DNA of 64,000 bases from the NCBI RefSeq assembly GCF_030013595.1, contig NZ_CP122768.1; one strand, written 5' to 3'. Positions within the stretch are counted from its first letter, which is position 1; the number at the start of each line of letters is the position of its first letter. Position numbers: made by a program. This stretch comes from Escherichia coli (GTDB lineage Bacteria > Pseudomonadota > Gammaproteobacteria > Enterobacterales > Enterobacteriaceae). Below, one piece after another: positions 21,001 through 24,000 of the stretch.

Positions 21001-24000
21001 TTAAATGACATCAATTATTTTATGACTTATCAGGGCGAGTCCATTAACCTTATTTCACTGGATCACGAATACCCAGAGTCCTGTCTTCAAAATGACACAA
21101 ACACATATTTATTAGGAAGAGTAATATTTCTGTATAACTCAATGATTTATAAGTTCATAAACTGTCAGGAACATGAAACCAATAACATTCACTCAGCTAT
21201 GATAAATAACCTATTACAGGAAGTTGATATAGCCCTTGGTAAAATAAATGACATTATAGACAGCAGAAACATATCAGCCCCCCATGAACTGGCAAATATT
21301 CTTACCCGCGAAAAAATACTTACAACACGGGAAAAAAAAGGAAACCTGATAAGCCTGTTTGATGGATTCACTTTATTCCATTGTGTTGGAATGATAACCT
21401 TTCTTATCCATTATCTCAGAACACCTGAAGAAAAAGTTGAAAATATATTTATGTTATATGGTGCAGATAAAAACAATAAACTACGCAGAAGACTGATTTA
21501 TGACGCACTAGGAATAATTCAGTCTCAGCAGGAGTGAAGAGTTAAACAGGCAAATTATTTTTTATAAAAAGGGGATTGTTAAGTAATCCCCTGTTAATCA
21601 AAATACGCTTTCCTGACGATCTGATAATTATCAGCTCAATACATTTGACATAAAAGCGGTTTCTTAATTACTACTGCTACGATCACATATCAAATCATGA
21701 TCGTACAATATACATTTTCACTATTATTTATTCACAATTTGAGACATCACATAATCCGCCCATGCCTGCATCATCGGTACACGCTGCTCCAGTAGATCAG
21801 TACGATGATATGCCGCCTCAACCTTATTTTTCAGCGTATGAGCGAGCGCCCTTTCCGCCAGATCCCGCGAATACCCCTGTTCGCTACACCAGTCCCTGAA
21901 TGTTGAGCGAAAACCATGTGCCGTGGCAACTCGCCCCGGAATGTCACTGCCGGCTTTCTTTTTACGCAGAAAACTTGTCAACACCATATCGGAAAGGATC
22001 TGCTGCTTTCTGGGTGAAGGGAACACCAGTTCATCATGCAGGCCACGTATATTTTCCAGAATGTAAATAGCCTGCCGGGATAAAGGAACACGATGCTGTA
22101 TCCTGGCTTTCATTCTTTCTGCAGGTATAGTCCATACCCGCTTATGAAAATCAATTTCAGCCCAGCGCATTCCCCTGGCTTCGCCCGAGCGAGTTGCTGT
22201 AAGTATCACCATTAATAACAGTGCGCGGGTAACATTATAAGGTTCATCGGTATACACACTGGTCGCCACAAAAAGCGGTAACTGCCTCCAGGGCATTGCG
22301 GGTTGGTGTTCATCACGTCCTCTTGTCTGCTGAGGAAGCAAATGGTCAACCACATCAACAGGATTTGCTACACAAAAACCGTGCGCCCATCCCCACTGCA
22401 TAACAACATGAATGCGCTGTTTAACCCGGCTTGCCGTTTCTGACAAGGTTAACCAGACTGGACGCAGTGTTTCTGCCACGTCCGCAGCCGTAATCGAATC
22501 CAGCGTTTTTGCTCCCAGTTGAGGAAACGCGTAATTCTCAAGCGTCGATAACCACTGCCTTACATGCTTTGGATTTTCCCATCCAGGAGACAGTTCTGCA
22601 TGTACACGCCTGGCTGCATCGGCAAATGTTGGGATAGCGACTTTCTCAGATTCAGCCTTTTTAATCTCCAGAGGATCATCACCTGCAGCAAGTTGCTCTC
22701 GCATTATCCGGGCAGTACGTGCAGCTTCAGCAATACTGACCTCTGGGTAAGTTCCCAATCCAGCATTACGTCTTTTTTGTGTCACCGGACTTACATAACG
22801 AAAAACCCATTTCCCCCGCCCCTTTACTGAAGAAGGATGAAGGGTCAGTCCGGTAATTCCCCCATGGGGCAATGGTTTGTCATCAGGTTTGATATGTCTT
22901 GCTTTCGTATCCGTCAATACTGCCATACGCTAATTCCCGTCACTCTGGTATGCCATCCAGTATGCCATTAGTCTCTCGCTTCACTAAGAATACATTAGAT
23001 AATATCGGACAACAAAAAGTGTAATACATTGTTTATAATGAAATTATATAACACCCCTGGATTAAGTCAGATTTATTTCAGGCGGTCCCCCTCACCGCCA
23101 TATTTAAAGAAAAGCTCGTACGAAAGTGCGAGCTTTTTTTTCGCATATTGCACTCCAGGGGGGATGAGAAGCCCCGACCGGGGTTCGACAACTGGCGCAG
23201 CCAGTTGGACAGACCACGAACGCAGTGAGTGGGCTGCCCGCAGGGCGAGCGAAGCGAGTCAATCCCCCCTCACCGCCATATTCAAAGAAGAGCTCGTACG
23301 AAAGTACGAGTTTTTTTTCGCATTTTATCTGCCTGTACGGCAGTGAACGGTATAAAAATCGAGTTTTTCTTTCGGTTGGCTTTCTAAGCTGCCTGTACGG
23401 CAGTGAACTCAAATACTACACGTCTAGCCCGTTGTTAATAAAGCAAAACCATCTCATTTTCCTGCTCCCCCCCCTTTTTTATCCTTACCTTCCCGCAGCA
23501 CTAATTATCAACAAATTACCATCATCATCAAAAAAAGGGTCTGAACCTCCTCCACCCCATAAACAAAAAGTCCGTAACCTCTTTCGAGATTACGGACTTC
23601 ACCAACCTACCTAACAATTAGATTAATGCGCTGCTTCCGCCTTGTGCTTTTGTGCACTCTGGAATCCGTAAGTCAGCTCATTTTTCTCTTTATCCAGCGC
23701 GACGGTGACCTGACCGCCGTCCACCAGCGAACCAAACAGCAATTCGTTGGCGAGCGGTTTTTTCAGGTTGTCCTGGATGACACGCGCCATCGGACGTGCG
23801 CCCATTGCCCGGTCGTAACCTTTCTCGGCCAGCCAGTTACGCGCTTCCTGGCTCACTTCCAGAGAAACACCTTTCTGATCCAGCTGAACCTGCAACTCGA
23901 CGATGAATTTATCCACTACCTGATGGATCACGTCGGTGGAGAGATGATCGAACCAGATAATGTTGTCGAGACGGTTACGAAACTCCGGCGTAAAGATCTT

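Follow-up and report, generated by a model that had tools for sequence, protein, structure and literature searches.

The segment described here lies in the window, by which we mean the whole 64 kb stretch of Escherichia coli DNA that was analysed, between a gene for a P4-type tyrosine integrase (int) and the chromosomal gene clpA (Table 1). Because clpA adjoins the segment, the locus is serW rather than serX. The integrase gene is transcribed away from the junction and into the island, and its orthologues in the strains 7CC, O111 11128 and rl0044 are annotated as tyrosine-type recombinase/integrase.

Table 1. Features between the integrase gene and clpA, with positions given in the numbering of the window.
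Feature	Position	Strand	Evidence or remark
P4-type tyrosine integrase, 400 aa	21724..22926	-	ORF; Pfam Arm-DNA-bind_3, Phage_int_M, Phage_integrase; NCBIfam PRK09692
Weakly supported sigma-70-like promoter match, upstream of int	23043..23070	-	CTGACT-16-TATAAT, consensus match at 10 of 12 positions
Copy 1, 14-bp att core CCCCCTCACCGCCA, cryptic ser'W	23087..23100	+	Identity to the serW locus starts exactly here
Native serW intrinsic terminator, cut from the tRNA by the island	23101..23143	+	Hairpin of -21.2 kcal/mol, T8
RtT/TLR unit	23144..23278	+	Rfam RF00391; TLR, tRNA-linked repeat; full tandem period 23101-23278 = 178 bp
Copy 2, second exact 14-bp core, 3' end of the TLR unit	23265..23278	+	
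Second intrinsic terminator, repeat copy of the serW terminator	23279..23320	+	Hairpin of -18.2 kcal/mol, T run; terminator scan
Type I-F CRISPR remnant, one 32-nt spacer between two repeats	23321..23408	-	Rfam CRISPR-DR4; context, outside the repeat
clpA, conserved chromosomal neighbour	23623..25899	-	ORF; aligned genes annotated clpA in 7CC, ST70 and K-12

A repeat finder detects a direct repeat of 54 nt (23087-23140 and 23265-23318) with 93% identity and a start-to-start spacing of 178, which stretches to ~62 nt, and an additional 16-nt piece is found at a spacing of 177. The two ~62-nt copies differ in length by one base at either end, with 5 versus 6 C before TCACC at one and GAGC-T8 versus GAG-T8 at the other. 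Both contain the exact 14-mer CCCCCTCACCGCCA, which occurs only twice when both strands of the window are searched and forms the 3' terminus of E. coli tRNA-Ser(GGA), the product of the genes serW and serX. Downstream of each core copy lies a hairpin whose loop is GAAA, with T8 behind it, the hairpins having folding energies of -21.2 kcal/mol (copy 1) and -18.2 kcal/mol (copy 2); both have z ~ -5.9, and none of 200 shuffled sequences folds as well. The terminator scan found the second of these terminators but missed the first, because the stem was extended into the A and T runs, and the first was revealed by direct folding.

These results bear out a preliminary description of the same DNA in most respects. 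It had recognised two copies of a tRNA-Ser 3' end, each with a terminator, which the ~62-nt repeat, the exact 14-mer present twice and the GAAA hairpins with T8 confirm, and it had derived both copies from tRNA-Ser, in line with the match of the 14-mer to the serW/serX end. The motifs that it placed between the copies are present, GGGGTTCGACAACTGG at 23180-23195 and AGTGAGTGGGCTGCCCGCAGGGCGAGC at 23225-23251. Its account of the hairpins is correct as to a hairpin and T8 after each copy and needs amending in one detail, in that the second hairpin ends ...GTACGAGT and not ...CGAGC.

ARAGORN found 0 tRNA or tmRNA genes in the 64 kb window, and the Rfam tRNA model RF00005 gave no match between 22900 and 23700 even at the permissive threshold of E<=1. 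With both searches empty, we reject a hidden intact or degenerate tRNA; the absence of an intact tRNA at the repeats and in the window as a whole had been correctly stated before. Other Rfam matches in this region, to MicC, the Thr/Leu leader, STnc320 and Rev39 (23045-23173 and 23249-23318), are far under their gathering scores and were dismissed, because it is the terminator hairpins that drive them.

The island junction at serW

Island DNA lies to the left of copy 1 and native chromosome to its right. Island-specific sequence stops at 23086, the left flank of copy 1 is identical to the island ends of 7CC and O111, and the 14-bp direct repeat sits at the island boundary itself (23087-23100). 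The right flank has no island end; it is the native serW terminator, and 23101-23143 is near-identical to the DNA that directly follows serW in ST70 and K-12, from which 2 substitutions set it apart. A P4-family tyrosine integrase is present at the island end. Copy 1 had previously been read as an att junction with an adjacent integrase, and this reading stands, since its core equals a published repeat, TGGCGGTGAGGGGG, of which it is the reverse complement, and since int occupies 21724-22926. Perfect 14-bp direct repeats of that sequence bound the islands OI-43 and OI-48; these repeats correspond to the last 14 bp of serW or serX, and the Shigella SRL island has identical ones; OI-43 and OI-48 carry a P4-family integrase with 99% identity to the SRL enzyme and excise via recombination between the 14-bp repeats at 1e-3 to 1e-4 per cell (PMC3064760).

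The island part of the window (1-23086) matches the islands of >440 E. coli genomes at 99.9%. These matched islands carry ure genes, phosphoethanolamine transferase, YfjI, TOTE primase and IS elements, and ter genes lie beyond these. Judged by its sequence, the island is of the OI-43/OI-48 kind (tellurite/urease TAI, SpLE1). With OI-43/48 and with Shigella flexneri's SRL-PAI, the window shares the 14-bp direct repeat, the target serW/serX, the placement of a P4-family integrase beside a cryptic ser' stub and, at 99.9%, the ure genes and cargo, the sole difference at the junction being that the serW allele of the window carries a TLR and, with it, a second core 178 bp further on.

When 22950-23650 was compared with 5,426 complete E. 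coli genomes, the best full-length match (98.4%) was found in strain 7CC, and the exact junction of the window was absent from all 5,426. Since this exact junction is missing though the island part matches at 99.9%, it is the combination of the island with a serW TLR that is unrepresented in the genome collection.

The arrangement at the far end of such an island can be followed in 7CC, which has the same integrase and the same junction beside clpA, with island cargo that differs from that of the window. In this strain, an intact serW (locus coordinates 35454-35541) directly abuts the other island end, 64 kb off, and the 14-mer is the only sequence common to the two junctions. The preliminary description had placed the intact tRNA beyond the window; in 7CC it is found there, at the non-integrase end, in agreement with the map of OI-43/48 (PMC3064760). 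It had also assigned the integrase to the attR-type end, a geometry opposite to that of CP4-57, and was right in this because the intact serW of 7CC abuts the far end and int lies beside the stub. Directly after the reconstituted serW, at 35542-35590, 7CC has an island-supplied terminator (hairpin GCGCATGTTATTGTTTAACATGCGC followed by T6, -17.4 kcal/mol, z -6.7), which replaces the native terminator stranded at the other junction. For the source genome of the window, we infer a far island end and an intact serW as in 7CC by analogy, because the closest full-length junction, that of 7CC itself, matches at only 98.4% and has different cargo.

CP4-57 and other P4-type prophages likewise have a P4-type tyrosine integrase and insert into the 3' end of a small-RNA gene with duplication of that end. 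In CP4-57, however, int lies beside the intact gene, whereas in the window it lies beside the displaced 3' stub, the att core being inverted relative to int.

The RtT unit and the alleles of serW

The segment that ends in copy 2 belongs to the RtT family, the class of tRNA-linked repeats (TLRs). The Rfam model RF00391 matches 23144-23278 on the + strand over its complete length (model 1-130), reaching 48.5 bits where the gathering score is 45 (E 2.3e-6); the score lies only 3.5 bits over the threshold because the model is dominated by tyrT-type units. The window unit is 98.9% identical to the serW unit of ST70, which follows an intact serW and is labelled 'RtT sRNA' by RefSeq, 92-93% identical to serX units and 58-60% identical to tyrT units. 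Eleven aligned units yield a consensus fold whose outer stem and inner hairpin are preserved from the Ser type to the Tyr type through double changes, and both elements of the tyrT units are retained in the window unit through such compensatory changes. Folded together with its terminator, the window unit reaches -76 kcal/mol (z -6.0).

Descriptions of RtT elements and TLRs are reportedly to be found in Egan and Landy (1978), Bösl and Kersten (1991) and Rudd (1999). [quoted passage not shown] Like the known RtT elements and TLRs, the window unit measures ~178 bp, stands in tandem register directly after a tRNA gene and closes with that tRNA's 3' end. Copy 2 reads AATCCCCCCTCACCGCCA as compared with AATCCCCCCCTCACCGCCA in serW, with one C fewer and an exact run of 15 nt, as is characteristic of the 3' end of a TLR. 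The position directly downstream of the cognate tRNA and in the same orientation is observed in island-free ST70 (serW 1432-1519, RtT 1563-1697). An intrinsic terminator sits between the tRNA and the RtT unit.

In the window only the tRNA stub precedes the unit, the tRNA body having been moved off by the island. Whereas known TLRs adjoin their tRNA, this unit is parted from both tRNA and promoter by the island, and whereas the tyrT units are without a shared terminator segment, each unit at the window locus has its own intrinsic terminator. The promoter scan gave minus-strand matches only, with no + strand match. With the serW promoter displaced by the length of the island and no + strand promoter match, the TLR of the window would be transcriptionally orphaned and is probably silent.

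A second piece specific to the cognate tRNA recurs at a corresponding position in RtT units, namely GGGGTTCGA for Ser-type units and AAGGTTCGA for Tyr-type units. Each piece matches the 5' half of the T-stem and the start of the T-loop of its own tRNA, that is, of tRNA-Ser and tRNA-Tyr, respectively. With pieces at 23180-23188 and 23261-23278, the unit resembles the last ~28 nt of a tRNA whose T-loop has been split by ~70 nt. A tRNA-like relic had been suspected between the two copies; the T-arm piece matched to tRNA-Ser is indeed there, but the segment as a whole is an RtT unit, comparable with the tyrT units and their tRNA-Tyr piece.

The megablast search with 22950-23650 against the 5,426 complete E. 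coli genomes distinguished three kinds of allele. In the K-12-like allele, the alignment runs from copy 2 onward only and takes in tRNA-Ser and clpA; in the second, it runs from copy 1 onward, with tRNA-Ser, 'RtT sRNA' and clpA; in the third, present in few genomes, it is full-length and includes the integrase side. The serW locus sampled from O157:H7 is unoccupied and aligns like that of K-12, from copy 2 onward. The gene order is aat, infA, serW, RtT sRNA, clpA in island-free ST70 and aat, infA, serW, clpA in K-12. In a three-way alignment, the window is collinear with ST70 from 23087, through the terminator, the 135-nt middle segment, the core, the second terminator and the CRISPR remnant, and K-12 is without exactly one 178-bp unit; leftward of 23087, ST70 continues with the body of serW and the window with island DNA. 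The inter-repeat segment, which had been proposed to be what remains of a deleted element, is already present at the island-free serW locus of ST70, which argues against that proposal.

An intact serW followed by the unit was found in about 457 of the 5,426 complete E. coli genomes (query covered to at least 80%), and in 962 the unit lies in the stretch from the serW core to clpA, whether or not the left side is occupied. On the basis of these counts, the unit is a common resident polymorphism of serW that is independent of the island. Among the TLRs of K-12 there is none at serW, and the window unit represents a presence/absence polymorphism within E. coli. K-12 matches to the RtT model at or above the Rfam gathering score number four at tyrT and two at serX. 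The serX locus of K-12 has three further cores and units, of which the third unit is under the gathering score. Units after serX or a ser'X stub vary in number, with three in K-12, two and a partial one in O111 11128 and four in rl0044, at a period of 179-181 bp. Overall, the number of tandem units ranges from 0 to 1 at serW and from 2 to 4 at serX.

Two sites on the 3' side of the core, +6 (T/C) and +13 (A/G), are swapped between the copies of the window (23101-23115 and 23279-23293) as compared with those of ST70 (1520-1534 and 1698-1712). At the same sites, 7CC has C and G in both copies, and the single copy of K-12 has T and G. The swapped pattern suggests gene conversion between the tandem copies. 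The single serW terminator of K-12 is made up of the copy-1 hairpin and the copy-2 tail, a hybrid that fits a crossover within the repeated 3'-end/terminator segment.

Origin of the two tRNA 3'-end copies

We consider it highly probable that the region is a composite of an island attR junction in serW and a resident RtT/TLR unit after serW. The position of the junction, the homology to island-free alleles, the membership of the unit in the RtT family and the geometry in 7CC are direct observations. According to this model, an island of the OI-43/OI-48 (TAI, SpLE1)/SRL-PAI family would have integrated into serW, its P4-type tyrosine integrase recombining site-specifically at the 14-bp core CCCCCTCACCGCCA, which forms the last 14 nt of the tRNA gene. 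Because the att core is oriented opposite to int in this island family, int would end beside the displaced stub ser'W (copy 1), and the reconstituted intact serW would lie at the other end of the island, outside the window, with a replacement terminator supplied by the island. The host lineage would already have had one 178-bp RtT-type TLR after serW before the island arrived. Read in the order terminator, structured core, second tRNA 3'-end copy and second terminator, this resident unit would account both for copy 2 and for the supposed relic. The number of units may change by unequal crossing-over between the ~62-bp 3'-end/terminator repeats.

Nothing here is new in kind, both components having been described before and being routinely annotated by RefSeq, and because both parts are already known, the significance of the locus beyond its correct annotation is small. 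As an illustration, it presents an island that cuts a resident repeat and the native terminator from serW and supplies a terminator of its own at the other end. The remaining thread is the origin of the TLRs themselves. The T-arm pieces matched to their own tRNA leave a small chance of a tRNA-targeting ancestor; that TLR units are deep-time fossils or products of an element targeting tRNA 3' ends, and that the 14-bp core might in that case be an occasional spare att site, appears improbable.

Two other accounts, in which an island makes use of the TLR core, bear on a query that joined the 3' end of a TLR to the left end of the island. None of the 5,426 genomes covered this chimeric query to at least 80%, the query representing one island-end sequence type and requiring near-identity, and all of its matches are attL junctions in tRNA-Ser itself. 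In one account, an island excised at serX between the serX core and a downstream TLR core, carried a unit to serW and left it there upon precise excision. Each TLR does contain a perfect 14-bp core, two to four units stand beside the same island at serX, and the serW of K-12 is without a unit; the K-12 allele is, however, equally explained by loss of the unit through unequal crossing-over. A recent import should be near-identical to its source, yet the serW unit differs from every sampled serX unit, with 93% identity, another hairpin, an indel and several substitutions, and has the linker CGCATATTGCACTCCA as opposed to CGTATATTGCACACACC in the serX units; in addition, copy 1 has a terminator of the K-12 serW type behind it, not one of the serX type. 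In view of an identity of 93% and of the differing linker and hairpin, we reject a recent island-borne import from serX, and together with the lack of a TLR-end/island-left-end junction in the 5,426 genomes, these differences make an import of this kind very unlikely. In the other account, copy 2, which matches the 14-bp core exactly, is a functional secondary attB that would allow a second island or alternative excision end points. The same missing junction speaks against it, as does the difference in the sequence 5' of the core (GGTTCGAATCC in the tRNA versus AGCGAGTCAATC in the TLR), and we assign it an equally slight probability.

Scarcely credible is the serial or tandem integration of two elements at serW that the preliminary description had favoured, with the inner one nearly all deleted, 23101-23264 its relic and copy 2 its att: two exact 14-bp cores do lie 178 bp apart as direct repeats, the DNA between them holds no tRNA, and SRL-PAI-type islands can occupy both serX and serW, but a tandem remnant should start with the island left end GATTATAAGCGCATG... 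and finish with the right end ...TTTCAGGCGGT, whereas copy 1 leads into the native serW terminator and what runs up to copy 2, ...GCGAGTCAAT, is RtT sequence; no island ends lie inside the cores, the inter-repeat segment is not missing from unoccupied serW, the same 178-bp unit follows an intact serW without an island in ~457 genomes, and the unit is homologous to the serX and tyrT repeats that form a curated RNA family. The flanks, the island-free occurrence and the RtT membership all contradict such an event. For the composite of junction and resident unit, it follows that a second tRNA 3'-end copy near an island junction need not mean a second integration, as TLRs give the same signature. 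Delimiting islands by repeats of tRNA fragments could misplace a boundary by at least one 178-bp unit at serW, serX and tyrT.

Further CRISPR and RNA matches

The CRISPR remnant next to the second terminator consists of a degenerate repeat (23321-23348, 29.7 bits), a spacer (23349-23380) and a full repeat (23381-23408, 50.1 bits), the degenerate repeat beginning 3 nt past the T run of the terminator. ST70 and K-12 have a remnant in this place too; the window shares its spacer with ST70, whereas the K-12 spacer at that position is another one.

Two more Rfam matches lie elsewhere in the window. At 1179-1457 (+), a match to '5' ureB sRNA' (86.5 bits) is on the strand opposite to the urease genes, as judged from the aligned annotation of rl0044, and may reflect mere conservation of the ure coding sequence. 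At 61133-61202 (+), there is a full-length match (97.3 bits) to RNA-OUT, which we take to be the antisense RNA of IS10, and because of this match an IS10/Tn10-type element is probably located near the right end of the window.
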